64,000 nucleotides of DNA from Flectonema sp. DT1601. Its lineage: Eukaryota. Shown one piece after another: positions 16,100-39,161 of this stretch (its first letter is position 1; each line of letters begins with the position of its first letter). The notes beneath the pieces are model-generated. The model ran no database searches, was not told the origin of the DNA, and was given only the letters and a program-made list of their open reading frames with translations. The DNA lies in the NCBI GenBank assembly GCA_964019425.1, contig OZ025785.1:1240001-1304000 (forward strand), in the 5' to 3' direction. A program made the position numbers and the translations under genes.

Positions 16100-16138
16100 G
16101 TGTGTATTCTTTAAATCAAATTATGAAAAAAGATAAAG

Positions 16139-16211
16139 TGGTCACAATGGGGCTCGAACCCATGGCCAATGGCTTATTAGACCAACGCTCTACCGACTGA
16201 GCTATGCGACC
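16139..16211 (-). tRNA. tRNA-Ile (anticodon AAT), copy 1
   Basis: Reverse complement GGTCGCATAGCTCAGTCGGTAGAGCGTTGGTCTAATAAGCCATTGGCCATGGGTTCGAGCCCCATTGTGACCA has an acceptor stem, D arm, CT-AAT-AA loop and GGTTCGAGCC T arm. Confidence 0.93.
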
Positions 16212-16599
16212 TCTGTTTTAAGAAAACCTTTTTCTTTTGAAGAAAACTTTTTATTTATAAAGAACTTCTAAAGAGAAACAAAAAGGTGTTTTTTATTTTT
16301 GCATTTAACAAGTATTGTAAGAACGAAAAAGAATGTTGGCAGCACACGTAAACCTCCTTTAGCTTTATCAGTCGGTTCACGGTTTCGTGCACAAACAAAA
16401 AATCACAGTGTTATATCATTATTTTCTGTATAGTTGAAGTTAAAGCCAATTCTTTTTTAAAAAACCTTCTCCCCGATACGTGTCAGGTTCCAATATTTTT
16501 TACGTCTTTTTTAATCAAAAAACGATTTTACGTAAAGCAATTTGGATGGCCCCAAGTCTTCTGAGTTACGAAACCTAAATCGGCTTCCGCCCGAAAAAG

Positions 16600-16672
16600 T
16601 GGTCACAATGGGGCTCGAACCCATGGCCAATGGCTTATTAGACCAACGCTCTACCGACTGAGCTATGCGACC
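16600..16672 (-). tRNA. tRNA-Ile (anticodon AAT), copy 2
   Basis: Identical 73-nt sequence to copy 1. Confidence 0.93.
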
Positions 16673-16975
16673 TCTGTTTTACGAGCTGCAACTTCGACAT
16701 GAAGTTTTTCGTTATTGTTCTTACCTTCTCCACATATTTACATATGTGATAAGTATAAGTCATATCTTACGATTGACAATTCCTCCCCATAAATAAATTT
16801 CTTTTTATTATTTTATTTTACACCTGCCTTACTAACTTGGGGAGAAAGAAAGGATGAACAATGGGCCTCTTATGAGGTGGGCAATTGCCCTGGACCCACA
16901 TTAAATGTACGCGTGTTTTGCGTCAGCCCGTTGCTGTAGAAAAAGAAGAGACAGTTTCAGGTAGTAATGAAAAAA

Positions 16976-17014
16976 AACCAACGATTCTAAAGCTACAGTT
17001 TCTGTACTTTATTG
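16976..17014 (+). ncRNA. Spliced-leader (mini-exon) sequence, retrocopied; not a complete SL RNA gene
   Basis: 39 nt, AACCAACGATTCTAAAGCTACAGTTTCTGTACTTTATTG. It ends in the euglenozoan SL 3' signature CAGTTTCTGTACTTTATTG and closely resembles the Diplonema SL as I recall it. It is not followed by a GT donor or SL intron. Confidence 0.88.
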
Positions 17015-17656
17015 TTTTTTCCCTCCCTCGCCCCATCCCCGTCAGCGAGTAGGAAAGCGCAGCTAGGAATTTTTCCACGCAAGCGGATCCCACAACCCGA
17101 CCACCCTTCCCCACGCTCACCCCATCCACCCTCCCCCACCCCAACAAAAGAAGAAAACGGCGGCAGCCACGTGACACACTCGTGTTCGTGTAGCGAAGCG
17201 TTTCGGCGACTTCGAAGACGACGACGACGACGACGACGTAGAAGAGACGGTGTATGTGACTGACCTTCTTCTTCCTTATTTATTTGTTTACTTTTGTTAA
17301 TTACTTCCTCTTAATTTCATTCCTCTCTTAGATTGTTGTTTATTTGCTTATTTATTTGTTTGTTTATTTGTCTGTTTATCTGTCTGTATATTCTGTTACT
17401 ATCTGTTATTTTGTTACATTTATCTGTAGTACATTTTTGTTATTGTTAAATTAAAACATCTTCTTCACAGTTTTTTCCCTCCCTCGCCCCATCCCCGTCA
17501 GCGAGTAGGAAAGCGCAGCTAGGAATTTTTCCACGCAAGCGGATCCCACAACCCGACCACCCTTCCCCACGCTCACCCCATCCACCCTCCCCCACCCCAA
17601 CAAAAGAAGAAAACGGCGGCAGCCACGTGACACACTCGTGTTCGTGTAGCGAAGCG
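17014..17656 (+). repeat. 187-bp direct repeat pair (17014-17200 and 17470-17656)
   Basis: Identical gttttttccctccctcgcc...gtgtagcgaagcg, offset 456. Copy 1 follows the SL; copy 2 follows TTCTTCACAG. Confidence 0.95.
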
Positions 17657-17718
17657 CTTAGCGCTTTAAAGTCTTTTAAGTCGCAGAAGTCGCCCCCGTC
17701 GCCCCCCGACCCCCACAG

Positions 17719-17772
17719 GGTATTGAACCCAGGTGGACCAGAAGACAGACGGTGACAAAAACCACTGCGCCA
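17719..17772 (-). promoter_or_regulatory. tRNA-like Pol III internal promoter (A box and B box)
   Basis: Minus strand TGGCGCAGTGG (A box, 17772-17762) and GGTTCAATACC (B box, 17729-17719), 32 nt apart; no complete cloverleaf seen. Confidence 0.6.
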
Positions 17773-18007
17773 AAGTATATTGTTGAAAAAAAAATTTTTT
17801 ATTGTTTATTATATATATTAATTAGGTCATATTTATTTAGAAGAATTTGGTATTACTTGTCGTTGTTTATTTAGAAAATACTAAGGAAGAAAGAGGAAGA
17901 AAAAAAAAAAAAAAAAAAAAAAGAAATTAGATTTTGCATAGGCATACTTGCAGAGGAGGAGATAAACGCGGGTCCTTCAGTAAGCTCTAGTACATCGGCG
18001 GGGTAGG

Positions 18008-18052
<45 letters not shown>

Positions 18053-18303
18053 CATCTATCTTCGGTCTACGAACGCTTTGAGTCGGCCAGCAGTCACAAA
18101 CGGACATTGAAGGCGCGGATAATTGTTGTTGCTGTGGAAACCTTGCTCTGCTGAAGAAGGAGTTGAAATTTTCCCCACCTGCATTCTGATTCGAGTTGTC
18201 TTCGAGAGTACTTTGCTTTGGTCAAAAAAAAGTTACTTATTCATCCAGCTCATACGTCCTTCTCATCTTTTCTGGAGACTGGACCGCTGGTGAACGCGCA
18301 AAC

Positions 18304-18600
18304 AGAACAAATTTTTTCTTTTGTTCTTCATTAAAACTACACTGAGACACGGTCTTCCGCAATACATCGCACGAACAGAACATATCCTTTCTTGTTCTCG
18401 TTTAAACACCGCTTTAAGACAGCGAAAAGAACATATCCTTTTTTTTGTTCTTGTTTAAACTCTGCTTTGATACACGGTCTTCCGCTAGTCAGCGCGCGAG
18501 AAGAACATATCTTTTCTTGTTCTCGTTTAAACTTTGCTTTTAAGACCTGCAAACAGAGCATATCTTTTTTTTGTTCCTGTTAAAACTCTTTTTTAAGACA
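18304..18600. repeat. Degenerate tandem repeat with internal palindrome AGAACA-N10/11-TGTTCT (about 5 copies, ~126-bp higher-order period)
   Basis: Recurrent agaacatatc(c/t)ttt...tgttct(c/t)gtttaaac...ctttaagac; acacggtcttccgc occurs twice about 125 bp apart. Confidence 0.75.
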
Positions 18601-18753
18601 AAGCGTTACGAATCAGCCTGCGGGAGGAGAAGGAAGAACTCTCTCACTAGCTTTGTTTGGTGCCCGTGGTGGTGACTACCATTCTGCGTCGGAACTGTAC
18701 GGGGGTGACCGCATAGACAGAAGAGTTCGGAAAGCGGAGGATACGCGAGCCAG

Positions 18754-18784
<31 letters not shown>

Positions 18785-18895
18785 ACTCCACACACACGTA
18801 CAGGGCTAACAAGGAGAAGAGCAGGTAAGTCGATTGTCTTTTTTCGGGTTCCATACACAAATCATCCACAGCGAAGAGAACGGAAAAGGAAGAGT

Positions 18896-18938
<43 letters not shown>

Positions 18939-18941
<3 letters not shown>

Positions 18942-21900
18942 AGAATGGAGAAAACAATGTTACTGTGTGGGTACGTGCTGCTGTGGGCACTACTAAGTGG
19001 AACGAGGGCGCAACAGACGTCCGGAGTGGGTAAGCAGAGGTTAGCCCCAGTGCCAGGCGGATGGCACACCCCTCTTTTCACAACGCTGGACAAAGGCCCA
19101 CTGTTTTCATCGCGCATCAGCCGACGCGTAACACGCCCGATCCCCCCGCACCCATTTATAACCCCCAACAGCTCAAACAGCCCCAACAATACGGCAAGCG
19201 GACGCGCTTTCCAACATGGACGAGAGGGGGTGTGGGTCCCGCGGAGGGGAACGGAAACGGCCGGGAACCGGGTGAGGCGAGACCACCCAAAGCCACCTCC
19301 AGACAAGGGAGGAAGGGAGCTCCTGAAGAGGGCGTCCCCGAAAGTGGCGTCCAAGGCGGCAAGGCGGCTGGAAAGGAGGAGGAGGAAGCTGCTGAAGGAA
19401 CGGCAGGAGAGGTGGGAGCGGTGGGCGGGAGAGTTGGAGAAGTTCCACGCCAGGCGAGAGAGGTTCCGCGCGGAGACAGAGAGGCCAAGGAAGAACAAGG
19501 CGGAGACACCGAGGAAGCGACGGGCAGGGCCCGAAAGGGACTGGACAAAGCCAGGAGGGCACAAGGCGGAGCCCAGACCATGGTATGCGAGGCCGTCAGA
19601 CCTGGCAGGAGGAGGGCAAAGCAAGGAGAGGACGAAGTGCCCGGTGGTGGGGTGCAGCGTCTGGGTGAGGGGTGACCTAGAGTACCACTTCAAACAACAC
19701 CTGAAGGGAGTGGTACCGGGGGAGGTAACGGCCCAGATGGCATCCGACAGACTCGGAAAGCAGATCTGCAAGGCCTGCGGGGAGCTGAGTACCGGATTGG
19801 TGCACCAGACAGTGAGGTGTCGGGAGATGTTGGACCTCAAGGGACGGCTGGGGGTAGCGACGGGACCCACGCCGGAACTGGCAAGCCTGAAGTGCGAGGG
19901 AGCAAAAGTATTCCGGGTGATTGGGGATGGGAATTGCCTGTTCAGGAGTGTGTGCCAACTCCTAGAGACGCCAGAGGGGTGGAAGGGCAGACATGGAGAG
20001 CTCCGCAGGAGAACGGCAGGATACCTGACCAAGAACAGGGAAAGGTTCGAGGTCTTCTTCCAGGACGCGGACGCATTCGGAGTATATGCGAGGGCGTTGG
20101 AAGAGGATGGATGCTGGGGCGATGCATTGGCCCTACAGGTCATGGCAGAGGACCTACAGTGCCGCTTCGTCGTCGTGGTGAGGACGGAAACGCTGGTGGT
20201 GGAAGGGCCATCGGACCCGAAGCGGACGCTGGTCTTGACCCTGCAAAACGGGTGCCACTACGACCCAGTGGAGGCATCCGAGGACTGCGTCGCGCGGCTG
20301 CTACAGAGCGCCCGGAGGTTGGAGTTAGTGTCGCCAGGCCCGCTGTCGCAAGCAGCAGGAGGCGAGCCGGCAGTGCTGCAGACAGCCTCCCGACAGGCCC
20401 AGCTGCACGAGTGCCCCCAAGCGGAGTGCCCGAAACACAAGGGAGGCTTCGAGGAGTGGGCGGAGCTCCTAAGACACGTGGACGAGCACGCATTCAGTGG
20501 CAACCCGCTGACGCATGGACAGTTGGCGAGGCTAGGCCTCCGGGAATGTCCGGTGTGCTGTGGGATCATCGGGCAGGACCAGCCGATGCATCCGGGGTGC
20601 AGTGAGAAACTGCAGAAGGTCCAACTGGGGGACGTGTACACGGCGTTCCGGAAGCGGGTGCTGGAGAGCCAGAGCTTCCCCTCTTTGGAGGAAATAGCCA
20701 GCAGGAGGAGGCCGATAGCGAAGAAGCTGCCGGTGCCCCTGTTGCACCATTTGGGGCGAGCACTCAAGCTGGCGCTTGATCTAGTCGTGGAGCGGAACGA
20801 TGAGTGGGCATGGAAGCTGCTCTTGATGCTCCCGACTTGTACACTGCGGAGGATACGGAGGGGGGGTAGGAGGTTGTCGACCAGCAATCTGACAGGGGCT
20901 GTCGACGACCTGCAGGCATGGATTCGGGGGGATTTTGAGGGACTGTGGAAAGCGGCGGCCCCCCGCAAGGCGACGGGAAGGCCAGCAGTGAAAGAGGCGG
21001 GGCAAAAAGGAAGGAACGACAGGGCCACGTCGCTAGCGAGGGAGGGTTGCCTGTCACAGGCGATCTCGGCCCTAGACGCGCCGCCGCCAGCAGAACGAAC
21101 CGAGAAGGTGCTGGAGCAGATGCGCACCCTACACCCGAGGGCGAGCGGACCCCCATCGGCCACGGCAGGGCAGGAGGTGCAGATAGCAGAGGTGGAGCTG
21201 CTAGCATGCCTACGCTCCTTCCACAGGGGGTCGAGTGGAGGGCCTTCGGGCCTCGCGCCGCAACACCTGAAGGACGTGGTGGAGCGGGGTGAGGTGCCGG
21301 GGCTGGTAGCCTCGATCACGGAGGTGGTGAGGATTCTGGCGAACGGGAGGGCGCCGCGGGAAGTAGCGCCGCTGCTGGCGGGGGCGAACCTGACGGCGCT
21401 GGAGAAAGAAGGGAAGCCGGGGGAGCACCGGCCAGTCGCGGTGGGGGAAACATGGAGGCGGCTGGTGGCGAAGATCCTGTGCGGGGCATACAGGTCCCAG
21501 GCGAGGAGCTCGTTGCTAGAAGTGAGACAACTGGGAGTAGCGGTGTCGGGGGGAGTGGAGGCGGCGGTGCACACCCTGCATGAGTTCCGCGCGGAGCACG
21601 CGCTCTCGTCACAGAAAGTGTTCGTGAAGATAGACTTCTCGAACGCCTTCAACTGCGTGAAGAGGGGGGCGTTCCTGGATTCGACGAGGGATACCCTGCT
21701 GGAGAGCTGGGTCAGCTGGTGTTACGGAGCGCCGACGTGGTTGCTGTTTGGGGACGAGAGGCTGAGCTCGGAGGAGGGCGCTCAGCAGGGGGATCCGTTG
21801 GGTCCCTTGCTGTTCTCGCTGGCAATCAAGCCGGCGCTGCAGAAGGTGTTGGAGGCGAAGCCGGAGTTGGCGTGCTTCTACCTGGACGATGGGCTGGTGG

Positions 21901-24900
21901 CGGGCACCCTGGAACAGGTAGACAAGGCCCTCCAAATCCTGCAGAAGGAGACGGCGGAGCTGGGGCTGACGCTGAGGCCGGACAAGTGCCAGACGCACGT
22001 GCTCGACTCAGCCCAGAACACCCTGCCCTTGGGGTGGGGGTTGGAAGGGATGAGACCCCCACTGTACAACGGGGACTTCCTGGGGGCACCGTTCGGGACG
22101 GAGGAACACTGCCAGGAGTTCGTCGACAGGAAGGTGGCGCAGCTGGAGAAGAAAGCGGAGCTGCTAGCAGACCTGCAGGACCGGCAGGTGGCCATGGTGC
22201 TCCTAAGGCAATGCATGGGCTTCTGCAAGGTGACCCACCTGATGCGATGCTGCACGCATGGGAAAATGGACACCTCGATGCGGAAGGTGGACGAGCTGAT
22301 GAGGTCCACGGCGAGCCGAGTGTTGGGCCTGACACTGGAGGGGCCAAAGTGGATGCAAGCACAACTGCCGACCCGGATGGGGGGATTGGGGCTGCGGTCA
22401 TGTGCAGAGCACAGGGGAGCAGCACTATTGGGATCCCTGGAATTAGTCCAAGGGGTGAGCAAGTCACTGTGGGAGGGGTTCAAGGGGGTGCTGATGCCAG
22501 CACTGAAGAAGGGGTTGAACCTCGCCCTCCCGGAGGAGCTAAGGATAGAAGAAGACGGGCCGGGGCCGAACCCCCAGAGGCTGTCCTCGGCGAAACTGGA
22601 CCAGGTCAAGAGAGACTGCCTGCTGGCGGGGGCGAATGACCCGCGCGATAAAGGGAGGCTGCTCTCCCTGCGCATGGATAAGGCGAGCGCATGGCTGCAA
22701 CAAGCAGATGAAGAGTGCGCGATGGACCCAGAGACGTTCAGGATCGCATGTGGGATGCGATTGGGCGCAGCGCTGTTCGCGGAAGGGGCAGTATGCAGGA
22801 TATGCTCAGGCCCACAGGATAGGCAGGGATACCATGCCTCAATCTGTATCAAAAACGGCCACGTGCACCAGCGACACGAGAGGGTGAAGGAGGAGTTCAT
22901 CTCCATCTTTAAGCAGGCGGGATTGCCGCTGCTGAGAGAACCCAGCCACCTACTGGGACCCAACAAGCAGAGACCGGGGGACTGGTACTGCCAAGAGGGG
23001 CTGAGGGAGGGGAGAGGCAGAGCCTTCGACATCACAGTGGTAAACCCGGGGAAAATTAAATTGTATAAAACCCCGGGGCAAGCCGCGAGAGAAGCAGAGT
23101 CCCTGAAAGGGAACAAGTACGCGGAGCAGTGCACGAAACACGGGATTAATTTCTCGACAATTGCGCTGGAAGCGTACGGAGGGATGGGACGGGAAGCAGT
23201 GGGAACCCTGAAGAAGTTGGTGCAGATCTGCGCAACGAACTCGACGGTGCCACACCGGGAGATCGCGGGGGAGATGGCGAGGAGGATCTCGACATCGGTG
23301 GTAGTGGCGACGGCGGAAGCACTGAGAGCGAGGGAGGCGTCGGTGGCGATGGACTCAGTGAACCCATTGCCAAGGACGAAACCGCCGCCCGAGATGACGG
23401 AGAAGCCGACATCACAAGAGAGAGAACCAAGACCGAGAGCGGAAACGGAAGAGATCCAGCAGCCGGAAGTAATGCGACAGTCGGCAGGACCGCCCCCGAC
23501 GATGAGAGGTTTGCCGAACATCGGGAACTCCTGCTACCTCAACGCGTCCGTACAGTGCCTGCTGAAGGGCACGGCACTGACACAAGTGCTGACGGGGAAG
23601 GAGGAAGTGGGGATGTCGGGCCTCCTGAGTGGAGTGGTCAAAGGGAGTGGGGAGTGCCTGGAGAAGCTGTCCGAGATGTTCGACCCGCTACAAGACAGGC
23701 GGCAGGGGGAGGTAGTAGGAACCCTGACGTCCATAGTAGACGCCCTGTTGGAGGAGAAGAAAGAGGTGTGCGAACCGTTGTTCTCGGCAGTACAGCTGAA
23801 ACAGCTGGTCTGCACGGGATGTGCGGACGCCTCCGGATCGACGGATGAGTTGACGCTGATCCCACTGTGTGGCCGTACACCACAAGTGAGGCTTCAGCCG
23901 ACGAAGGAGAGAGTCGAGCGGTCCTGCGAGAAGCTGTGCGGCAGCAATGAGGCCACGCTGGAAGAGAGTTTCGCCTCGCTCCCAAGCTCCTTGATCTTCC
24001 AGAGAGACAAGCAGGACACGCAAGGGTCCTTGGGATGGGAAGAGCGCTTCCAGGTGCAGGTCGGGGAGAGGGTGATGACGTACCAGCAAACGGGAGCGAT
24101 CGCACACCTCGGGAGTGACAACGCGGGGCATTACGTGTCATACACGTGGGACGGAGTAGGCTGGCAGAAGCAAGACGACAAGGCAATAAGCCAAGTGTCG
24201 ACAGAGGAGATCCACGGGACGAAACCAGTAGTAGTGGTCTACTCGAGGGTGGAGGGATCGACCCAAGAGGACGTCGGGGTGCCGGTGAGATGGATTCCGG
24301 TGGCGAACAAGGACCGGATGGAGGTACGCGAGGCACCGCCGTCGGAGGAGGACACCGCGGGGTACACGTCCAGGGAAGAGGCGGAGTGTGTCCTCCGGAC
24401 GCGAGTAGTAGGGGGGCAGACGCAGCGCAAGCTGCTCTTACTGGTATCGAGCGTCTGGAACGCGGAGATGGAGAAGCTGGGGGCGGCAGCATGCCTGATA
24501 CACATGGGAACGCTCGACAGGAGGTTCACGTGGTCGGGCTGCCTACCGACATGGGACGAAGCGACTGCGGAGTACGTGGCAGCGCTGCTAGGGCTCAACG
24601 CGATCAGGGAGAGATCGCAACTGCTGGGGGGTGAGACACAGATCGAGGTGGTCACACCGCAGCAGGGGTGGGGAGTCGAGCAGCAGGAGGCGCTGAAGTT
24701 GGTAGCGCTCCCGTCGGTGATAGAACACCAGGTGACGGAAAGCTCACGAGGGGTGGAGAACCTGGCCCTCTGGGAAGCGGAATCGGCGGCATGGGACGAG
24801 CCGGTGGAACTCTCGGAGGACGGGCTCGACTACTTGGTGATCGAGCTGGAGATGAATCTGGGGCTGTCCCAATTGAGGGGAAAGGCGGTGGAACCGGATG

Positions 24901-27900
24901 AATCCCAGTCGCTCCCAGGAGGGTCGACGGCATCAGGCGAAGACAGACCACGAGCCGAAGCGCCAGCCCAGGTGGAAGCGCAGACGACGGAAGCACAAGG
25001 AGCGGAAGCAGTAGGGCTGAGAGACGAGCCAGCACAGGAAGTGGGACAACCCGAGGAAAAAGAGCCCCCATCCCCCGACCCCCCGTCGAAGGAGGAGAAG
25101 CTGTATGCGGTGGCGGTGGGATGGAAACCGGGAGTGTATGCATCGTGGGAGGAGGCGAAGGCACAGACGGAAGGGTGCCCGAATGCGACACACCAGAGTT
25201 TCTCCTCCAGGAAGGAGGCGGACAGGTTCGTAGAGAGGTGGCAGCCGGAGACCAGGGAACCGACCCGGGCCACGGAGGGTGTCAGCCCACGTAAGTGGTA
25301 CGCAGTGGCGAGGGGCAGGGCGGTAGGCCTGTTCCAATGCTGGAACGAGGCGAACTCGATGGTGTCAGGCTACGCGGCGGCGAGACACAAGAGTTTCGCA
25401 AGCAAGGGGGAGGCGGAGGGATACCTCCGAACCCACCTGCTGGGGGAGGTGGTTGGCGAAGTAGGGACGAGGTACACCTTGGTGTACGCATGCGAGGAAG
25501 ACCCGGTAACGGGCCGTCTGGGGGCGGCGGCGAGCTGGTTGGACACACACCGTTTCGAGGTGTTGGGCACATGGTCAGCTGGCCTGCCAGCGGGAGACAC
25601 ACACTGGGGGCGATACTTCGCAGCCCTGGTGGGGCTGGTAGCGGCCAAGGCGTGTGGAGGCCCCGTCCCAGCGGAGGCATCCCTGCTGCTGCGAGGAAGC
25701 ACGACACACTGGTCGACGGACCAGAGAGAGGTGCTGGAGGAGGCGGAGTTGATGGGGAGGCGTACGACGCTGGTGGAGATGCCAGAGAGGATGAGAACAC
25801 ACGCGACGGAGGAGGCTGAAAAAGCGGCGAAGGAGGGCTCGACCTCAGTGACGGAAGCCGTGATGAAGGTTTTCACAGAGGGGGCAAAGAACTGCCTGGG
25901 ACACGGGACACAGACGGGTCCCTTCACGGTGCGGTGGGAGGGAAGACAACTGCGTCTGGAACCCCAGTACACAGAAGAGGGGACGGGATCGTCAGGCGGC
26001 CGAGAGTCGGTGGAAGGAGAAGACGCGAGGGTAGAGGGCCGAGACGAGCAGAGCCCGGTCCCAACCCCGAAGGGGGCCGTGCAAAGGGTAGAGGCGGGAG
26101 TCCTGGAGTTGAGCTCGGAAGGGTCGGAGGGAGATGACGATAGATCATCCTCCCCAGCGACAGGGCAGGACGAAGGGAACGGTTCCATGTCGGGAGGCTC
26201 CTTGGGGAGTCCAGGGACGTCGGACATGGAAGTAGAAGAACAGACGGACGAAAGGGACCAGTCGGTAGACCCGTCGGCAGCAGAGACCTCAGGCGAAAAC
26301 CATCACCTGGCCGAGGACCTGCAAGTCGAGAAGGGGGACGAGCTGGACGAGACGTCCCACCACTCAGGAGAGCCACCGTCGTCAGACGGCATGGACGGAG
26401 TGGAGGGGTTGGAGGACCTGGAAGACTCACAGTCGGAGATGGAAGTCGACGGAGAAAATGTGACGGAAGGGTCAGTAGTCCAGTACGTCGAGGAGACGTC
26501 AGAGGACGTGGTCCAGGTGGCAGAGTCGGACACAGAGGAGGAGGGATCGTCAGACTCCCAAATGACCATGACGGTCGATGAACAGGAATGGGAAGAGGGA
26601 GCGGCGCCCGAGGGGAACGCAGGTCAGATGGCCTGGATGCTGGGACTACACCCAGAAGGGGGGAACGCGGAAACACGACGGGAGGGCCAATCGGAGCCCC
26701 TTTCAAAGCTGGTGAACTCAGGCGAAACAAAACCAATGGCCGAGAGATCCAGTTTGGGGGCGAAGATGGGACCACGCGCAGTGGGTAGTGACGGGAGCGG
26801 GGAAGACGCAGAGAGATCGCCGGGCACGGTGTCGACACCGAGCACGAGAGGGAGGACGAAGTACAGAAAGGGAATGGAGGAGGAGAGGGAGGAGTGTGTG
26901 TCGCCGAAGACAAATACGGGAAGGGGACGCACGAGAGGCCGGAAGGCAAAGACGGGGGCAAAGGGGGCCGGAAAGGAGGACCCAAGTCCGCAGGTGTTGC
27001 AGGCGGAAATGGGAGAGTCCACCCCGAGCTCAGGTGAACGGCAGGCGAGGAGGAGGTACAGGAAGGGAGAAGAGAGGGAGAGGATAGAGGTTCTCTCCCC
27101 AGACCCGAGCAGGAAAGCGAAGAGGAAGAGACGCAAGCAGAAGGAACCGGAGCCAGTGGAGGGCACCACGAGGGAACAGGCGCCGCGGAGTTACAACAGG
27201 AAACCCACACTGCGTCGGGTAGGTAAGGGAGACACACCCGACACAATGGGGTACGCACACGGGCCCCCGGGCTCCCTGACCTCGTTCACGGACGCGGGCG
27301 TACGCCCGGAGCCGGCGGAGCGAGACGGACAAGGTGTGGCAGGAGTAGAGTTGGTCACAAGGTCGTCGTCACAGAGTGAGAAAAGCACCCAAGGAGAGAT
27401 GAGGGAGAGAGAAGGGGATCCAACACGAAGGGTCCTGGACTTCTCGTCGAAAGGGGGAAGGTGCTAGGGACTCCACGAAGGAGGTCTCAAGAGTCGAGGA
27501 AAAAACAGAGCCAAGACCCCAGAGCCAACCCAAAACACATGGTAGAGGACGAGGGAGAACAAGAGCGGGAGCGAGGTTAGAAACGTGACCAAAGCCCCCG
27601 CGAAGCAGGAGACACAACCTGCAACCAGACCCCCCCCAAAAAAAAAAACCCCGGTCAACGAGGCAAACTCGGACCAAAACATGCTTTTCACCCCCCCCCC
27701 AGGAAACACCGACCAGTGGAGCCAAAGGCCACACACATATTATAAAAATCAAAGGCCGCCCCCCAACCCAAGAAAAGGATGAAAAACTTTCAAGCGAAAA
27801 AACTTGACGTCCGTGCGCCCCAGAGATCAAAGGACGGACGACTCACACCCCCTTCTTTCGCCCCATTTTATTTACTGGTACAGCGACAAATGTAAAGCTG

Positions 27901-28198
27901 GGTAGACGACGAATTATTCTTTGTGCACAGAGACAAGGGATCCATGAGAACAAAGGATCAAGAGAAGAAGTGCACATTCCCCCTTCCCAAACCCAGAAAC
28001 ATGAGAACTCATTAAATTGAAGGGTCATGTCTTTTCAAGTCGAAAAATGCTTAAATGCAAAAGAAGACTGTCGTCCCCAGCTCGCGGGTTTTCCCTGTCG
28101 CTGTATGTCGAGACAACGATCAGAGTCAGAAGAAGGATTGTACTATTAACAGCATAATGAAAAAGGACAAAGAGAGTAGTTTCCATTTTATCTTCCCG

Positions 28199-28273
<75 letters not shown>
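18939..28273 (+). mobile_element. CRE/SLACS-like non-LTR retrotransposon (RT + restriction-like endonuclease) with OTU and USP domains; the 5' boundary may extend to 16682
   Basis: Single long GC-rich ORF, ~730-nt 3' UTR and an A75 tail (28199-28273) abutting tRNA-Ile upstream flank sequence. Confidence 0.9.
18945..27467 (+). CDS. Retrotransposon polyprotein: ZnF-OTU-ZnF-RT-CCHC/RLE endonuclease-USP-RNaseH-like-2x RNase H1 N-terminal (hybrid-binding)-RNaseH-like-acidic tail
   Basis: OTU: GDGNCLFRSV...WGD...HYD. RT: SSGGPSG, RPVAVGETWRRLVAK, QLGVAVSGG, KIDFSNAFN, GAQQGDPLGPLLF, YLDDG, QLPTRMGGLG. RLE: CRIC..HASIC, RHE, RPGD..FDITV, KGNKY, ALEAYGG. USP: GLPNIGNSCYLNASVQCL...HLG..AGHY..W..QDD. 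HBD: YAVAVGWKPGVYASWEEAKAQ and YAVARGRAVGLFQCW. The first ATG after the A40 tract is taken as the start. Confidence 0.9.
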   Translation: MEKTMLLCGYVLLWALLSGTRAQQTSGVGKQRLAPVPGGWHTPLFTTLDKGPLFSSRISRRVTRPIPPHPFITPNSSNSPNNTASGRAFQHGREGVWVPRRGTETAGNRVRRDHPKPPPDKGGRELLKRASPKVASKAARRLERRRRKLLKERQERWERWAGELEKFHARRERFRAETERPRKNKAETPRKRRAGPERDWTKPGGHKAEPRPWYARPSDLAGGGQSKERTKCPVVGCSVWVRGDLEYHFKQHLKGVVPGEVTAQMASDRLGKQICKACGELSTGLVHQTVRCREMLDLKGRLGVATGPTPELASLKCEGAKVFRVIGDGNCLFRSVCQLLETPEGWKGRHGELRRRTAGYLTKNRERFEVFFQDADAFGVYARALEEDGCWGDALALQVMAEDLQCRFVVVVRTETLVVEGPSDPKRTLVLTLQNGCHYDPVEASEDCVARLLQSARRLELVSPGPLSQAAGGEPAVLQTASRQAQLHECPQAECPKHKGGFEEWAELLRHVDEHAFSGNPLTHGQLARLGLRECPVCCGIIGQDQPMHPGCSEKLQKVQLGDVYTAFRKRVLESQSFPSLEEIASRRRPIAKKLPVPLLHHLGRALKLALDLVVERNDEWAWKLLLMLPTCTLRRIRRGGRRLSTSNLTGAVDDLQAWIRGDFEGLWKAAAPRKATGRPAVKEAGQKGRNDRATSLAREGCLSQAISALDAPPPAERTEKVLEQMRTLHPRASGPPSATAGQEVQIAEVELLACLRSFHRGSSGGPSGLAPQHLKDVVERGEVPGLVASITEVVRILANGRAPREVAPLLAGANLTALEKEGKPGEHRPVAVGETWRRLVAKILCGAYRSQARSSLLEVRQLGVAVSGGVEAAVHTLHEFRAEHALSSQKVFVKIDFSNAFNCVKRGAFLDSTRDTLLESWVSWCYGAPTWLLFGDERLSSEEGAQQGDPLGPLLFSLAIKPALQKVLEAKPELACFYLDDGLVAGTLEQVDKALQILQKETAELGLTLRPDKCQTHVLDSAQNTLPLGWGLEGMRPPLYNGDFLGAPFGTEEHCQEFVDRKVAQLEKKAELLADLQDRQVAMVLLRQCMGFCKVTHLMRCCTHGKMDTSMRKVDELMRSTASRVLGLTLEGPKWMQAQLPTRMGGLGLRSCAEHRGAALLGSLELVQGVSKSLWEGFKGVLMPALKKGLNLALPEELRIEEDGPGPNPQRLSSAKLDQVKRDCLLAGANDPRDKGRLLSLRMDKASAWLQQADEECAMDPETFRIACGMRLGAALFAEGAVCRICSGPQDRQGYHASICIKNGHVHQRHERVKEEFISIFKQAGLPLLREPSHLLGPNKQRPGDWYCQEGLREGRGRAFDITVVNPGKIKLYKTPGQAAREAESLKGNKYAEQCTKHGINFSTIALEAYGGMGREAVGTLKKLVQICATNSTVPHREIAGEMARRISTSVVVATAEALRAREASVAMDSVNPLPRTKPPPEMTEKPTSQEREPRPRAETEEIQQPEVMRQSAGPPPTMRGLPNIGNSCYLNASVQCLLKGTALTQVLTGKEEVGMSGLLSGVVKGSGECLEKLSEMFDPLQDRRQGEVVGTLTSIVDALLEEKKEVCEPLFSAVQLKQLVCTGCADASGSTDELTLIPLCGRTPQVRLQPTKERVERSCEKLCGSNEATLEESFASLPSSLIFQRDKQDTQGSLGWEERFQVQVGERVMTYQQTGAIAHLGSDNAGHYVSYTWDGVGWQKQDDKAISQVSTEEIHGTKPVVVVYSRVEGSTQEDVGVPVRWIPVANKDRMEVREAPPSEEDTAGYTSREEAECVLRTRVVGGQTQRKLLLLVSSVWNAEMEKLGAAACLIHMGTLDRRFTWSGCLPTWDEATAEYVAALLGLNAIRERSQLLGGETQIEVVTPQQGWGVEQQEALKLVALPSVIEHQVTESSRGVENLALWEAESAAWDEPVELSEDGLDYLVIELEMNLGLSQLRGKAVEPDESQSLPGGSTASGEDRPRAEAPAQVEAQTTEAQGAEAVGLRDEPAQEVGQPEEKEPPSPDPPSKEEKLYAVAVGWKPGVYASWEEAKAQTEGCPNATHQSFSSRKEADRFVERWQPETREPTRATEGVSPRKWYAVARGRAVGLFQCWNEANSMVSGYAAARHKSFASKGEAEGYLRTHLLGEVVGEVGTRYTLVYACEEDPVTGRLGAAASWLDTHRFEVLGTWSAGLPAGDTHWGRYFAALVGLVAAKACGGPVPAEASLLLRGSTTHWSTDQREVLEEAELMGRRTTLVEMPERMRTHATEEAEKAAKEGSTSVTEAVMKVFTEGAKNCLGHGTQTGPFTVRWEGRQLRLEPQYTEEGTGSSGGRESVEGEDARVEGRDEQSPVPTPKGAVQRVEAGVLELSSEGSEGDDDRSSSPATGQDEGNGSMSGGSLGSPGTSDMEVEEQTDERDQSVDPSAAETSGENHHLAEDLQVEKGDELDETSHHSGEPPSSDGMDGVEGLEDLEDSQSEMEVDGENVTEGSVVQYVEETSEDVVQVAESDTEEEGSSDSQMTMTVDEQEWEEGAAPEGNAGQMAWMLGLHPEGGNAETRREGQSEPLSKLVNSGETKPMAERSSLGAKMGPRAVGSDGSGEDAERSPGTVSTPSTRGRTKYRKGMEEEREECVSPKTNTGRGRTRGRKAKTGAKGAGKEDPSPQVLQAEMGESTPSSGERQARRRYRKGEERERIEVLSPDPSRKAKRKRRKQKEPEPVEGTTREQAPRSYNRKPTLRRVGKGDTPDTMGYAHGPPGSLTSFTDAGVRPEPAERDGQGVAGVELVTRSSSQSEKSTQGEMREREGDPTRRVLDFSSKGGRC

Positions 28274-28277
<4 letters not shown>

Positions 28278-28366
28278 TAAGAAAACTTTTATTTATAAAA
28301 AACTTTTCTTTTTTTTGGAGGAGACACGAGTCACGATCCAGGACCAACACTCAAAAAAAAAAAAAA

Positions 28367-31300
28367 GACTTCACGGCGGACACGGTCAGGAAGGAGATAA
28401 CAAGGTATTCTTTGGCAGGAGGTTCGCCATTGGCTTTCCTTAAACAGATCCTAAATAACCTGGCACTGAAGGAGTGCGCGGTGTGGGGGGGGACTCTGAG
28501 GAGCCTGTTCGAATCCAGATTGAAAGCGACACACAGGTGTGTATGTGGGTTTGTGAGGCAGGAGGTGCAGCTGAGTTTCATGGTCTTGGACCCAAAGACC
28601 AAGCCGGAGACAGCAAAGATCATCCTCTTAGGAGGGCCGCTCGAAGAAGAGACGAAGAGTCCAACGATCTGCGAGAGGTGTAGATCGCCAAACAGAGACT
28701 GCACTGTGCAGTGGAGATTCGCCGAGATGCCGCCGATCCTGTTCGCGAAGGAGAGAGTGGAACAGACGACGAGGGCCGCCTTTCAGGTAGAGACTGAAAG
28801 CGGGCCACGCAGTTATGTTTTAACGGGGAGTGTATGTGGCAATGGGAGACATGCAATGACAATGGTAAGAACGCCGAGGAACCGATGGGCATGTGTGAGC
28901 GACGAACGGGTGCGGAGCAAAGAAGGACCAGGCACGGGGCCGCTTTATTGGGTGTATACGAGAATCGAAGGAACGGAGGGTCTGTTAAGTGAGAAGCTCC
29001 TCTCCATAGACCACCGCATGCGGACAAGCCGAGCACTGAAGCCACGCCCAATGGACGATAAATCGGGACGAGCGAGGCGGTGGTACTTTGACCAAAAAAC
29101 ACAAGTAGCGAAGGAGGCGGTGGTAGAAAGGAGGGAAGAGCCAGTTCTGCATGTGGAAAAGCCGAGGGCAGAGCAACCACCATCCCCGTCGGAGCCGAAA
29201 CCTTTGGAGCCAGCATCAAACGGAGACATTGCGAAACTGACGCAAGAGACGAAGGAAGAGCCACCAGTACAAACTAACCGCTCCAAAGGGGACGGTGGGC
29301 AGCAGGCGCTGCCGCCGCCCCAGCTGCTCAAGTCTGAGGCGCGGAGTCCAGAGCGGGCAGAAGGCTCAACAACGGAACCAATGCGAATGGACGGGAGCGA
29401 CCAGACTAAAGACGTCACCGAACCGTCGGCGGGGATAGGATTGCACGCAGGAGGGAATTACTCGGACACATCCCTGTCGCTATCGGAACCGCCGCCTGTG
29501 AAACCCCACGGAAATGTCGAGACTTTGGAGCCAGCATCAAACGGAGACATTGCGAAGCTGACGCAGGAGACGAAGGAAGCGCCACCAGTACAAACTAACC
29601 GCTCCGAAGGGGACGGTGGGCAACAGGCGCCGCCGCCGCCCCAGCTGCTCAAGTCTGAGGCGCGGAGTCCAGAGCGGGCAGAAGGCTCAACAACGGAACC
29701 AATGCGAATGGACGGGAGCGACCAGACTAAAGACGTCACCGAACCGTCGGCGGGGATAGGATCGCACGCAGGAGGGAATTACTCGGACACATCCCTGTCG
29801 CTATCGGAACCGCCGCCTGTGAAACCCCACGAAAATGTCGAGCGGATGCCACAGGGACTGAGTGCGGTGCCATTGACGCTGTCAAAGCAACCGGAGGACC
29901 AGGATAGACGACAGACACCTCCGGCTCCCCAGCAGTCCGTATTAAAACTACAAGAAACAGGACAGGATTTGCTACAGGTCCCGGTGAAAGTAGCCGAGCG
30001 GTCGAAAGAACCGGAGGCGCCGCCTGCGGTAAAAGAAGAGTCGAACCTGCCGGCGAGGAACCTTTCACCACCGGTGTCTATTTTAACACCAAGCCAGGAC
30101 GTGCGGATGCCTACGCAGCCGTTGCGTGATCCCGAGCAGGGAGAACCGCATGCACTTGTGAAACCGACAGAGGGCGCACAGACGCAAGCGAATGGAGTGG
30201 TTTCAGAAGGAGCAGCCCCACAGAAGAGCAGAAGGGAGCCGACAGAACCTAAGACGTCTAGGGAGCAAGGTCTAAAACTGGGCTTTTACGCAACAGGACC
30301 GACCACGTGGGAGACAGCACCGTGGGAAGGAGAGCAAGACCCAGAGGAGGCCCAACAAAAGAGGGAGCCACTGGTACCACAGGAAGCAAACGCTCGGGAG
30401 GAAGACCGCGAGGGATATGACGAACCGACAGCGCGTGGAACAGACGGAGAAGCTGATGTACAGATGGAGAACTATGAGAGCCAGGAAGGGGCGAACTCCC
30501 AGGAACTAATGGAGGAAGTTACAGGGGAGATTGCCGAAACGAGCGAGCCGCTAGCGTATGGAATGGATGAAGGGGGTGATATACTCATGGAGGACTGTGA
30601 ACCGGAATCAAACCTTTTCTGCACGCGGGTAGCGCCAGCGGCCCCGTGTCTTGGTAGCAGAGGCCCGGACGTCACCGAACCGCAGAGCCAAGGGGGTGGG
30701 ACGAATATCCAGACGCGGACCACCTGGATGGAGGGCCTGACGAACCTCGGAGACTCGTGTTACCTGAACGCCACCTTGCAGGCACTACTGAAGGGGTCGC
30801 ATGTGGATTTCCAGCGGGCACGGAACACCCCTCACGTATGCGGGACGAGGTGTACAGTGTGCGCACTAGCACTGGTGCAGGGAGGTGGGTCGCAAGGAGA
30901 GATAACGAGGATCACAAGAGAATGGATGGGAAGAGGACAACAGGACGCCCACGGAGCCCTACTACACATAGTGTCGGACCTGCAGGAAAGAGCAAGACCA
31001 GGCGACCTCTTAGCAAACGCTTTCACATGCATGGTGGCAGTAGAACGCACGTGCATATGCTGTGGCGGAGGGAGCCAATCAATCGAGCTGGACTGCGGCC
31101 TGATACTGCGGGGATGGGACCTACAGTCGGCACTGGAGTCGACGACGATACCACAGGACTACGTGTGCGGACTGTGCGGTACGGGGTCTATGCAGGAGCG
31201 CAGGATTTTGATGGAGGCGCCGGAAACGATGATCGTATGCATTGTGAACGAGAATGCCACGAAAATGGCGCTGGGAGAACAAGTGTCGATGCGGAACAGC

Positions 31301-33650
31301 AAGATACAGGCCGACTATAGGGTGTCCGCTGTGGTGGTCCATCAGGGGTGTCTGGGATCGGGTCACTACACGTCTTTCACCCTATCACCGGGCGGCTGGA
31401 GGTACCAGGACGATGAGGTGGAGCGAGCAACAAGCTGGCGAGAGGTGCTGTCGTCTGTCCCTTACGTGCTATTCCTGCGAAGACAAGCTACAAAGGAGAT
31501 GTTCTGCGCAAATGAAGTTCCGATGATGCCACGACTAGCTCCACAGGTGGTCAGGGCAACGCCTCCAGAGCAGCACGGAATGGAAGGAAGGGATTATAGG
31601 CAAGTGAACAGTGAAATGCTCATACGGCCTGGAACGCAAAAGTCACGGACACAGTGTGAAGTACCACAATCAACACGGACCCAAAACCCACCGAACCTGC
31701 TAAGGACGGTGAAGACACTAGGTCGGTGCGAGAAGAAGAACGCCACGCGTGTCACAATACGAGCACACACAACGAAAGGCCAGAGGAGTCAACCGGCGAC
31801 GCGAATGGAGAGCAAGTTCAAGCTCTATGCTATCTCGAAGGGAAGGGGACGCACTACCATCGTGAATAGCTGGGCAGAGGCCGAGAAACAGACGAAGGGA
31901 CTCTCTTGCGCTGTTTATCAGGGCTTCAATAATGGAGAGGAGGCGGAGGCTTTCCTGAGAAGCACTGACCCAGAGTATAAGACAGCAGACAAGCCAGTAA
32001 AAGGCCCACGCAGAAATCGGCGGTACGCGGTCCCGTGTGGACGGCGTCCAGGAACGTACAGCACATGGAGTGAAGCCTCACTGCAAGTGCTACGCTGTCC
32101 AGGTGGGAAGGTGAAGAAGCTTTGCACGGACAGGGGAGCACGGGAGTACGTCGAAGAGCACAGAGCCACGAAAGGGTTAACGCAGCCAACACCACCACAT
32201 CCAGCTGTGTACCTTTTCTTAGGCAAAACCGGAAGGGCGTGCCTGGTGCGGAGTGGCGGAGGACCAGTGATGAAGAAGTGGCATGAGACCACAGGAGAGG
32301 AAAAAGACCCCATGCTGGCCGCACTAGAATTGGCACTGGAATGGGTCACAGGGAAGGGCCTCCTGGAGGGACCCGTGGAAGTGCAAGCGTACGCACCCTT
32401 GGAACAGTGGACGAGAGAACGGTGGGAGAAATTCGGGGCGATAAGTAGCGTGGTAAGGGCACGAGGACTAGTGTTGAGGCTGGCGGACCTACCTGTCGAA
32501 GTAAAGCACACAGCTTACCAGTGGGTGTGCCAAGTGATGACAGGCGAAACAGAGGTAGAACAGAAACCGAAGCCAGCGGAACCAGTCGAGGAGCCGAAGG
32601 AAGGATCGGCAGATCCCCACCATGGACGTGAGCCCCGAATAGGATGGCGCCCAAGTGCGATCCATGAGCCTGAGGAGGGAGTGCGAGGACAGTCGGAACC
32701 GGAAGCGGCTTTTAGAGATTCGAAGAAGAGGGCGAAGATCGAGCTAATAGAATGGCACTCTGAAAAGCCCATCTATGAGCTGTTCTACGCAGCAACACAG
32801 AGGGAGACGAGAACGTGTGTTGTAAGTGGCGGTGAAGTGATCCACATGTGGAGATTCCCCCTCAAGGAATGCTCGCCGAACCGCGAGGGTAAGGCGTTAG
32901 GGATCGGGATGGCGCAGCTGCTAAGTTACGGAGACGCAGTGAAGGAAATAGTGGCGTACGGCTCACTCGAGCACTCAGTAGAGTCACACCGACGATACAT
33001 CGAGGTCTCGCAGAGAATGGCGCATCGACTTGGATCAACGCTGAGGCTGGAGCGCCTGCCCCCCGAAGCCAGCGAAGAGGCCTACCGATGGGTGAGAGGT
33101 GAGGAAAAAGTCGGGAGGAGATTGTTAAAGTGGAAGGAGGAGAACGGTAAGGAAGTCTCACAGGCGGTAACAAGCACACACGAGAAAAATATTGTGCCTG
33201 AAACCACCACGGAGCCTACCATGGACCATGACTCAGACAAGATGACGTCAGACTCGAGCTCGATCTGCTCCCCACCGACACAAGAAGACCGCCCCCCAGT
33301 AGGGATGTGTGGGTGCGGAAAGGAGATACCGCAAGCAGCGATCAAGAATCCGGTGAAACACCCGACGAAGGGATGGTGTGATAGGTGTGGAGAGCGGATC
33401 GCGAAGGGAACGCGGGTAGTCATGTGCGTGAAGTGTGACTACGCTGAATGCTGCGGATTGTTGGAGAGATCGCGGCGTGGGAAAGAGAAGAGGAAAAGGA
33501 AATCACGGGGATCGCGATCGAAAAACGATGCCATGTGAGAAGCATGAAACGGAAAGTGAATGAACGGAAAAAATTAAATGTAAAGAAGTGAACTTGTAAA
33601 AAATGTAAAGAAGCAAACATGTTAAAAGAAAAATGAAAAAAAAAAAAAAG
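28367..33650 (+). mobile_element. 5'-truncated relative of the CRE-like element (C-terminal accessory region only; frame open to 33538)
   Basis: Starts abruptly after an A tract inside a USP-like domain (His box VCGNGRH..W..VSDE). Then a full USP (GLTNLGDSCYLNATLQAL, QQDA, GSGHY..W.YQDD), two RNase H1 N-terminal modules (YAISKGR..NSWAEAEKQ; YAVPCGRRPGTYSTWSEA), a terminal CDRC...CVKCDY zinc finger and an A-rich 3' UTR. No RT is present, so family membership is inferred from architecture. Confidence 0.75.
29202..29842 (+). repeat. 321-bp (107-aa) in-frame tandem duplication
   Basis: ctttggagccagcatcaaacgg at 29202 and 29523; the protein repeats LEPASNGDIAKLTQE...PPVKPH. Confidence 0.95.
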
Positions 33651-33954
33651 AAGAGTGAAAAGGAAGACAGAGTTGTATGTAAACTGTATGTAAATGTAAG
33701 AAGAAAGAAAAAACACGCTGGAAGTGGGAGTGCAACCATCAGCGCAAACACAACCACAAATATTGTTTTTTTTTTTTTTCCTTTTTCTTTTCTTCGCTTC
33801 GGCGACAGATATGGTAGGACCTAGAAAACCGGCCCAAAACTTGTGTTGCAGTTTATCTTTTTAGCGCACACTCATGTAACATAAGGATCGCTGGTTCCGA
33901 GGGTTTGCTCTCCTGCCATACTTGCCTCTCACCTCCCTCAAAAAAAAAAAAAAA

Positions 33955-34307
33955 AAAATAATAACAAATTGATATTGGCGACTACGTGTCACCTACTTTA
34001 CTTCCAAAGTCTAAGGTTAGATGTCTGTTCCATCCACCTTATGATCAACGCGAGTGATGGAAGCCACGCCAAAGTGAAGAGGGCTTCAAGGTTAGGAATT
34101 TCGTTGGCAATAATAAGTTCCCGATCGCGATCCCACTTGCCGGTCAGTGTTGAGAAGCCCAGGATTTTGAACCTGGCCGAGTCGAGTTTGGGAGATTGAC
34201 ATCCCTGCAGCAGGTGAACCTGTGAGGACGGTTCGCCACAAAATGGGCAGTCGATCGTCTTGCGCCAGTTCTGAATTAGCGGGTGACATCCTGTCCGGAA
34301 GTTCGCT
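33955..34307 (-). mobile_element. Fragment of Ingi/I-like LINE subfamily A (C-terminal zinc-knuckle region)
   Basis: Near-identical to 36671-37023. Confidence 0.88.
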
Positions 34308-34319
34308 TAAAACCTTCTT

Positions 34320-35915: not shown

Positions 35916-36142
35916 GGTAAGGAATTTCTCCCTGTCCAATGCGGGATCCTGGGATTTTGTAAAACCGCAGCTGTTGCTGATTTGAATATTGTCCGAAGCA
36001 ATCCAAGGTTTGATAGAGTCAGGTTGAACGAGCCCCACGCTTTCTAGTTGACCTTCAGTAAGGGGAATGAGGCCACACATGGAAGAGAATGCGAACAGTT
36101 CTAGTTTCGGACTTCATCGCAAGGTTCTTGAAAAAGAAAATG

Positions 36143-36215
36143 TGGTCACAATGGGGCTCGAACCCATGGCCAATGGCTTATTAGACCAACGCTCTACCGA
36201 CTGAGCTATGCGACC
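36143..36215 (-). tRNA. tRNA-Ile (anticodon AAT), copy 3
   Basis: Identical 73-nt sequence to copies 1 and 2. Confidence 0.93.
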
Positions 36216-36246
36216 TCTGTTTTAAGAAAACTTTTCTTTTTTTTGG

Positions 36247-39111: not shown

Positions 39112-39161
39112 TTTTTATTATAAATAAATAAATCTTTCTTTTCTTTCTTTTCTTTTTTTTA

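Follow-up and report, generated by a model that had tools for sequence, protein, structure and literature searches.

The standard example of spliced-leader (SL) gene targeting is that of the CRE elements, for which the target provides both promoter and cap. The trypanosomatid members (SLACS, CZAR, CRE1 and CRE2) encode zinc fingers, RT and RLE in a single ORF and have a poly(A) tail, internal repeats and a target-site duplication (PMC12278014), with an SL exon on the 5′ side. In Diplonema papillatum, the 'SLACS 132 kDa' proteins comprise 745 genes in one orthogroup (supplement file 5 of PMC10161547). Other elements use tRNA genes as targets. The NeSL-related RLE non-LTR elements NeSL-1_TV, LIN15_SM and LIN25_SM have their 3′ junctions inside the tRNA gene, in the same orientation (PMC4640811); the known RLE tRNA targeters cut inside the gene. 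Elements that target the upstream side belong to the L1 clade or are LTR elements: dictyostelid NLTR-A inserts 2–6 bp and TRE5 40–54 bp upstream of tRNA genes, TRE5 in opposite orientation, and yeast Ty3 lies 1–4 bp from the tRNA-gene start site (PMC5911963). SL sequence has also been connected with reverse-transcribed DNA elsewhere. In dinoflagellate retrogenes a genomic SL relic marks cDNA of a trans-spliced mRNA, and RNA of the LTR retrotransposon Cer1 is SL1-trans-spliced, the trans-spliced RNA being subgenomic and the full-length RNA skipping the site (PMC3315495).

The locus described here lies in a 64,000 nt stretch of Flectonema sp. DT1601 (contig OZ025785.1, positions 1,240,001–1,304,000; hereafter the window), in which three tRNA-Ile(AAT) genes of the same sequence are encoded on the minus strand (copy 1, 16138–16211; copy 2, 16599–16672; copy 3, 36142–36215). 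An insert of 11.6 kb (16682–28273) starts nine bases upstream of copy 2, which is intact, and stands head-to-head with it. As the earlier note had claimed, the insert is bracketed by an exact 6 bp duplication, GTTTTA (plus strand, 16676–16681 and 28274–28279), the left copy of which occupies positions −4 to −9 of tRNA-Ile copy 2; this was the sole match among 14 duplication lengths tested across both junctions. The missing tRNA flank was likewise said to resume behind the A75 tail of the main element, here called element A (28199–28273, plus strand, by direct sequence count), and it does so. With copy 3 as the empty-site reference for −1 to −31 and copy 1 as the second, the sequence from 28274 matches the copy 1 flank exactly over 13 nt and the copy 3 flank over 17 nt, and when 28274–28318 (plus strand, corresponding to empty-site positions −4 to −48) is aligned locally with 3,196 tiles of the window, the best non-self alignments are to those same two flanks. 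GTTTTA occurs 19 times on the plus and 17 times on the minus strand of the window; thus the 6-mer alone is undiagnostic, and it is the resumed flank that is diagnostic. The flank motif TTTAAGAAAAC, which could have been common away from tRNA genes, occurs three times in the window and only at the tRNA-flank sites compared. The resumed flank runs for 45 bp before a second retroelement, element B, starts. It includes the displaced TATA-like motif to which the earlier note drew attention; copy 1 and copy 2 both have the motif in their flanks, copy 3 lacks it, and TTATAAA occurs eight times per strand in the window. An essential role for the motif was rejected because of its absence at copy 3. The insertion is real in the assembled sequence. 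The 5′ junction is not spanned by any independent read or contig of two public sequencing runs, and the contig pieces listed from one of them, run X1, leave the 3′ junction uncovered.

Element A lies on the plus strand, as does every host ORF with a Pfam match in the window, and has a single intact ORF, which counts 2,840 codons when read from its first ATG (18945–27467; 2,885 codons stop to stop, from 18810). Within it are zinc-finger motifs (by motif reading), an OTU domain (about 19923–20264, Pfam), RT (21405–22001, Pfam E 7.5e-17), CCHC and RLE-type motifs (22794–23129; residues 1329–1346 and 1388–1437), a USP/UCH domain (23505–24242, Pfam), two Cauli_VI (RNase H1 hybrid-binding) domains (25098–25427, Pfam) and, at its end, an acidic tail; the 3′ UTR (27468–28198) follows. 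Behind the Cauli_VI pair, a possible dead RNase H fold (25470–25838) is a lead only: Atlas scores of 0.88–0.90 point to the RNase H clan, a single-sequence model has a pLDDT of 39.9, and searches gave no Pfam match and one unrelated-looking match. RT, poly(A) tail and target-site duplication are those of a TPRT non-LTR element. The RLE type is indicated by a CCHC finger and then a PD-(D/E)xK-type nuclease after the RT, with no Pfam match to an APE domain in the protein. We take the post-RT motifs CCHC, RPGD, D and ExxK to be RLE, a name that no Pfam model carries. The single ORF, zinc-finger motifs and internal repeat region give a CRE-type layout.

The closest named relatives are the D. papillatum 'SLACS 132 kDa' proteins (E 1e-133), with about 32–36 % identity over RT–RLE and the same OTU–RT–USP order (e.g. 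KAJ9438409.1); in contrast to element A, two D. papillatum proteins scanned gave no match to Cauli_VI. In a quick tree of 37 rows, built without reference CRE or outgroup sequences, element A groups with SLACS-annotated D. papillatum proteins (SH-aLRT 94). R2 structures match it only at E 2e-6 or weaker. Pfam matches, motifs, tree and tRNA-flank junctions together support the earlier reading of an RLE-type, CRE/SLACS-like non-LTR element outside the SL RNA genes. Compared with trypanosomatid CRE elements, the ORF is more than twice as long and includes OTU, USP and two hybrid-binding domains, and the fixed insertion in an SL RNA gene is replaced by tRNA upstream DNA on the flanks, including the 3′ side. 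Unlike the NeSL-related elements, element A lies upstream of its tRNA gene, in opposite orientation, and leaves the coding sequence whole. It shares the position just upstream of a tRNA gene with TRE5, NLTR-A and Ty3; however, those are L1-clade elements with APE or, for Ty3, LTR elements, each with many-copy targeting, whereas element A is an RLE element seen in one insertion.

The 5′ end is more complex than the earlier note allowed, which took 16682–28273 as one element and overlooked an SL, an acceptor repeat and a foreign-looking piece of 294 bp. A single element beginning at 16682 was rejected because this piece, segment X (16682–16975, plus strand, 37 % GC), precedes the SL. It ends in six A residues and holds seven ATGs in 294 nt, compared with none in the 5′ UTR of the element. 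No similar stretch was found elsewhere in the window, and public contigs of the two runs leave it uncovered, a gap that proves nothing. Segment X likely derives from the 3′ portion of some other polyadenylated RNA. Next comes a complete 39 nt SL exon (16976–17014, plus strand), present once in the window and lacking both an intron and an SL-gene upstream flank. Its identity rests on a contig of run X1 in which the SL recurs with no differences, continues into sequence starting with GT and has another upstream flank. We take the SL to be diplonemid-type, given its length and the nearest named proteins of the element; the literature search matched it to no printed diplonemid sequence. The SL exon of D. 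papillatum is 39 bp (PMC10161547).

The SL is joined to the internal repeat exactly at the point that, in the second copy of the repeat, lies behind a polypyrimidine tract and AG. Downstream of the SL is a 456 bp unit (17015–17470, plus strand), made up of a 186 nt segment, which is identical to 17471–17656, and a T-rich tract with CAG at its end (17468–17470). The unit holds 19 AG dinucleotides, three of them behind a tract with more than 50 % T, and position 17470 is likely a trans-splice acceptor, as judged from these signals. A 486 bp contig of run X1 (456 + 30) circles round the unit at a depth of 10.5, with the ORF uncovered there, and in the second run, X2, unit depth is 9.4 against 2.2–4.2 for ORF pieces; neither depth is a copy number. 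The contig is also the de Bruijn loop expected from the window structure, so longer arrays elsewhere are unproven, contig depth being the sole hint of them. The 5′ UTR proper (17471–18944, plus strand, 1,474 nt) has four long A runs and a 125 bp tandem repeat. ATG is the single trinucleotide absent from it; 1,000 dinucleotide shuffles gave a mean of 9.7 and a minimum of 2, and seven host stretches of equal length, chosen as non-coding, have 14–27. An ATG-free leader fits cap-dependent scanning.

With a complete SL near its start, the insert was likely copied from a trans-spliced mRNA and not, as with the known relatives, carried in an SL gene. Together, the SL at an acceptor, the ATG-free UTR and the foreign 294 bp point to an SL-trans-spliced template and probably to a template jump. 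The reading we favour, at a probability of roughly 0.55 and for a single insertion with junctions taken from the assembly alone, is that of an intact CRE/SLACS-like element, a TPRT copy of an SL-capped mRNA, for which the open, A/T-rich character of the DNA ahead of tRNA genes, and no strict sequence target, likely decided the site. The parent copy would have been transcribed through read-through of a host polycistronic unit. The order of features along the DNA suggests that the SL was then joined to the AG of the element's own acceptor unit, giving SL–unit–UTR–ORF–poly(A). From the duplication, the RLE-type nuclease would have made one nick between −4 and −3 on the tRNA-sense strand and a second between −9 and −10 on the opposite strand. 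The RT may then have copied the mRNA in full, as far as the 5′ end of the SL, before switching to the A tail of a different RNA, 294 nt of which it copied as segment X; R2 provides a described case of template jumps in vivo by an RLE element (PMC3414825). The spare acceptor at 17470 would be kept in the new copy, the transcript of which, shorter by one unit, could receive a cap once more; the units in tandem may serve as a renewable 5′ end replacing a promoter or an SL-gene target. The SL, which marks the RNA template directly, would be joined at the element's own acceptor, which separates element A from trypanosomatid CRE elements, and it marks a retrotransposon where the dinoflagellate relics mark host genes. 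In contrast to Cer1, the full-length template itself appears to be capped and retains a spare acceptor. Element A may illustrate how a CRE-like element can live off the SL array, by read-through and its own trans-splice acceptors.

Less probable, and tentative, is the reading of the earlier note that family A specifically targets Pol III transcription start sites. It would then be a CRE-like element gone from the SL RNA genes and tethered upstream of tRNA genes, either by contact with TFIIIB/C or through R-loops recognized by its pair of RNase H1 hybrid-binding domains. The nick at −4/−3, opposite orientation and unharmed tRNA gene resemble NLTR-A (2–6 bp upstream) and Ty3 (PMC5911963). By chance, 0.0001–0.008 family A insertions would fall within 10 bp upstream of any tRNA gene, assuming unmeasured values of 50–280 Mb for the genome, 100–400 tRNA genes and 35–100 copies; however, the site was picked for its tRNA adjacency, and if 2,000 insertions of whatever kind are counted, 0.007–0.16 would be expected. 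Cauli_VI occurs in families A and B and is absent from the two D. papillatum relatives scanned, and tRNA genes of Trypanosoma brucei are R-loop-enriched (PMC6294496). Against this, ARAGORN found no tRNA gene in the 80 best distant loci (431,517 bp), a weak result because identity there is 27–45 % and most contigs are short; Rfam on nine of these loci found nothing.

The neighbouring retroelements also bear on strict targeting. Element B (28319–33958, plus strand, A19 tail) is a 5′-truncated member of a second CRE-like family; full-length proteins of this family, 4,614–4,730 aa with OTU, RT, USP and Cauli_VI, match it at about 99 % identity. Its 5′ junction, with 3 nt of microhomology, joins at about −49 of tRNA-Ile copy 2, but its priming end is away from the tRNA flank, at an A-rich site in the 3′ UTR of an element C sequence, about 425 bp from that flank. 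Element C (36247–39110, minus strand) is ingi-like, with RT and RNase H motifs, and terminates on its 3′ side 31 bp upstream of tRNA-Ile copy 3 (at −32); a second piece, 97.8 % identical, is at 33946–34307. The C sequences near copies 2 and 3 probably go back to a single ancestral insertion. Given this shared ancestry and the priming of B within C, elements B and C are not independent at the tRNA flank and were rejected as independent proof of targeting. A short repeat ends 78 bp upstream of copy 1, and its X1 contig carries T12. Retroelements of other types, including ingi-like elements with a different nuclease, have ends within 80 bp upstream of the three tRNA-Ile genes, which suggests site choice through regional preference as much as family-specific aiming. 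No element match was found upstream of the tRNA-Ser gene (57185–57266), and all tblastn RT/ingi-like matches in the window fall in 18.8–41.3 kb.

More speculative than strict targeting itself is its combination with the SL evidence: a CRE-lineage RLE element gone from the SL genes, spending its acceptors one per generation and re-expanding them, and homing to tRNA starts, possibly via the captured hybrid-binding pair. If true, this would be the first RLE element aimed upstream of Pol III genes, and one protein would combine two unrelated deubiquitinase folds. An RLE case, and one whose tether could be tested, would then join the convergent strategy known from elements of the L1 clade and from LTR elements.

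Since an SL, an acceptor repeat and segment X stand inside the left junction, the duplication may belong to an earlier small insertion. The GTTTTA duplication would then stem from segment X, as a small retrocopy with a poly(A) tail, and element A would later have entered this A tail, its own duplication hidden in A runs, its target an A-tract with no tRNA link. The six-A end of X and its difference from the element UTR in ATG content agree with this, and the A-rich priming of element B and a small A14-tailed insertion inside B indicate that short tailed insertions and A-tract priming do occur at the locus. Two rare events would be required at one spot, though, jumps after full-length copying are known for RLE elements (PMC3414825), and no repetition of X was observed in the window or in the two runs, where a gap proves nothing; we consider this course unlikely.

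A classical-CRE origin of the SL, from a donor copy seated in an SL RNA gene and read from the SL promoter with no trans-splicing, is improbable. Trypanosomatid CRE elements do insert in SL RNA genes (PMC12278014), the last 19 nt of the SL also adjoin a related element at metagenome locus L073, and the A11 tail of this relative precedes the 3′ 23 nt of SL-like sequence; but the SL junction here falls exactly on AG behind the T-rich tract of a repeated unit, the 3′ flank is not SL, and the family A members listed are scattered over 15 contigs. An assembly chimera between repeat copies, to which the repeat-dense locus and the lack of independent read support in two runs might point, is very improbable, a mis-join being unlikely to yield a 6 bp duplication and an in-register flank behind poly(A), and the 8.6 kb ORF being uninterrupted.

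A metagenome scan for relatives confirmed 481 of 601 stretches; an exact 26 nt search of metagenome contigs with the element A 3′ end gave no matches, and no spurious ORF was found that reads out of the 3′ UTR, across the tail and on into a different flank. None of the 23 pattern matches of a viral-contig profile scan was confirmed. Among the sequencing runs found there were no RNA runs; two runs matched, with a share of 0.07. The family A cluster comprises 35 proteins, of which the 15 listed lie on 15 contigs that differ in length, with 94.8–100 % identity to element A. Families A and B share contigs in 3 of the 15, one of them probably the window, a count that is uninformative without the number of contigs. 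One other protein copy is identical to element A over 2,836 aa, so the family looks young, and 1 of the 15 has six foreign N-terminal residues.

Three tRNA-Ile(AAT) genes of identical sequence were identified on the minus strand by ARAGORN and Rfam: copy 1 (16138–16211), copy 2 (16599–16672) and copy 3 (36142–36215). Upstream of copy 2, nine bases of flank are kept before 11,592 bp of other DNA ending in A75; at 28274 the flank restarts with the 6 bp GTTTTA duplicated, and of 14 duplication lengths tested this is the single one that matches. These features bear out the insert with duplication described in an earlier note. The resumed flank (45 bp) is an exact match to the copy 1 flank over 13 nt and to the copy 3 flank over 17 nt, and both flanks beat every other tile of the window, the self-match excepted. 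GTTTTA by itself is frequent in the window (19 on the plus and 17 on the minus strand). The flank motif was also checked for rarity away from tRNAs, and the 11-mer TTTAAGAAAAC is restricted, within the window, to the three tRNA-Ile flanks. The proposed TATA-like flank motif holds in part, copy 3 being without it. The observation of an insertion stands as read from the assembly, both junctions lying outside the contigs of two public sequencing runs with small shares.

The inserted DNA (16682–28273) carries element A on the plus strand, which contains a single ORF (18810–27467; first ATG at 18945; 2,840 codons) with Pfam matches to OTU, RT, UCH and two Cauli_VI domains. CCHC and RPGD-D-ExxK motifs lie downstream of the RT, and we take these motifs to be an RLE. 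Among named relatives, the best matches are Diplonema papillatum proteins with a SLACS annotation; solved R2 proteins are weak matches. In a 37-row tree from a quick search, with neither reference CRE rows nor an outgroup, element A groups with the D. papillatum proteins (SH-aLRT 94), and a 10-row clade (98) holds element A, these relatives and family B, a second CRE-like family. The family-A cluster comprises 35 proteins, and the 15 listed occupy 15 contigs of differing length and are 94.8–100 % identical to A. Family A is young and dispersed, and the element A insertion is real, young and CRE-like. Additionally, OTU (19923–20264) and USP (23505–24242) deubiquitinase domains, both with Cys and His motifs, occur within this one protein, and the D. 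papillatum relatives share the pair.

The earlier account was right as to duplication and tail and overlooked the 5′ end, where a 39-nt spliced-leader (SL) exon (16976–17014) occurs once in the window. A contig from X1, one of the two public runs, carries the same 39 nt with 0 differences, followed by GT and preceded by a flank differing from that in the window, as expected of an SL RNA gene. The SL exon of D. papillatum is given as 39 bp (PMC10161547). Judging by the D. papillatum relatives and this SL, the host is probably a diplonemid. The 186 nt behind the SL in the window have an identical second copy starting at 17471, preceded there by a T-rich tract and then CAG. Splicing at this acceptor would put the SL at exactly the position it occupies. 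Within the 456-bp unit, 3 of 19 AGs are preceded by a tract of >50 % T. The 1,474 nt between 17471 and the start codon lack ATG, the sole trinucleotide missing from them; 1,000 shuffles average 9.7 and never fall below 2, and seven host stretches, picked by the analyst as non-coding, hold 14–27. A 486-bp X1 contig makes one full circuit of the 456-bp unit, which fits tandem unit arrays in other family-A copies, although the window's own structure could also have produced it as a loop in the assembly graph. The SL-capped 5′ end is unusual and well supported. Separately, the SL RNA gene in X1 has TTTTAAG just before +1, resembling the opposite-strand tRNA flank motif, perhaps by chance. The 5′ UTR also holds, at 17902–18938, a tandem repeat of 125 bp and four long A runs of ~22, 42, 28 and 40 nt.

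The sequence itself contains the duplication and the tail, an intact ORF, an SL placed at an acceptor position, a UTR free of ATG and a spare acceptor. The Pfam-matched host ORFs all lie on the plus strand, as do A and B, so transcription may have been by read-through. The SL would then be added by trans-splicing at an upstream 456-bp unit, and the target nicked at −4/−3 and −9/−10. Reverse transcription would run full length and jump onto another polyadenylated RNA, giving segment X (16682–16975), the 294 bp before the SL, which has 7 ATGs, ends in six A and shows no similar stretch in the rest of the window. Alternatively, segment X may have integrated first, its A tail later being struck by element A. 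Jumps from the 5′ end of element RNA onto cellular RNAs are described for R2, an RLE element (PMC3414825). A fungal LINE is reported to make double jumps (PMC2104539). SL relics are reported on retrocopies of dinoflagellate genes, and a subgenomic Cer1 RNA is spliced with SL1 (PMC3315495).

Trypanosomatid CRE elements are described as inserting in SL RNA genes (PMC12278014), whereas element A does not lie in one. Known RLE tRNA-gene targeters cut within the tRNA gene (PMC4640811, S6 Fig), and the tRNA-upstream targeters in one review table are L1-clade or LTR elements (PMC5911963). A survey of titles and abstract openings, with subscription journals and Repbase reports mostly outside it, found no SL-capped dispersed CRE, no CRE upstream of tRNA genes and no OTU–USP pair in a CRE-like element. 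OTU-bearing CRE elements may have descriptions in those journals or reports.

With genome sizes, tRNA counts and copy numbers all assumed, chance would place 0.0001–0.008 family-A insertions in the 10 bp preceding a tRNA gene, but 0.007–0.16 if any of 2,000 insertions counts, and the present site was chosen for its tRNA adjacency. No tRNA gene was found in 431,517 bp around the best 80 of 481 confirmed distant-relative stretches, one of which, metagenome locus L073, has an SL-like target. Targeting of tRNA genes by family A is a plausible hypothesis; strict targeting seems less likely than not (roughly 0.3). R-loops are reported at Trypanosoma brucei tRNA genes (PMC6294496), making the two predicted hybrid-binding domains of element A, speculatively, a candidate tether. 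At 4695–6290 of L073, the A11 tail of the distant CRE-like element is followed by 23 nt from the 3′ end of an SL-like sequence and by a 1.5-kb piece with the same 3′ end, after which comes a degenerate SL-like site; locus L071 holds a decayed form of this SL piece.

Element B (28319–33958, plus strand), a 5′-truncated member of family B (26 clustered proteins), starts behind the 45-bp flank, and its A19 tail abuts the 3′ UTR of an ingi-like piece of the element C type. The copy 3 flank breaks at the matching point, there into the 3′ end of element C (36247–39110, minus strand); copies 2 and 3 are therefore probably duplicates each carrying C, with B having replaced ~425 bp of it. A further ingi-like piece starts directly behind the copy 3 terminator, and a short repeat (16289–16447), which in X1 terminates in T12, ends 78 bp upstream of copy 1. 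Retroelement protein matches in the window all fall within 18.8–41.3 kb, and none was found for its tRNA-Ser gene. A retro-type end lies ≤80 bp upstream of three of the window's four tRNA genes, involving at least two nuclease classes in events that are not all independent.

Family B codes for proteins of 4,614–4,730 aa (P0040 and P0042), a very large size by the standard of non-LTR ORFs. They combine a long N-terminal stretch of tandem repeats with OTU and RT domains, RLE-type motifs, two Cauli_VI and apparently two USP-like domains. Near the 5′ junction of B (28342–28369), a ~25-nt insertion of 8 nt plus A14 between two GAC copies shifts the frame. At least five ingi-like (RT and RNase H) pieces surround copy 3 in both orientations (33946–41307), from two families with ~30–40 % protein identity. 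The short T12-ended repeat between copies 1 and 2, assembled from both public runs, is possibly a SINE-like 3′ end. At positions 1–8393, 2,450-bp units are repeated in tandem, and every unit carries an adenylate/guanylate cyclase ORF of 752 codons.
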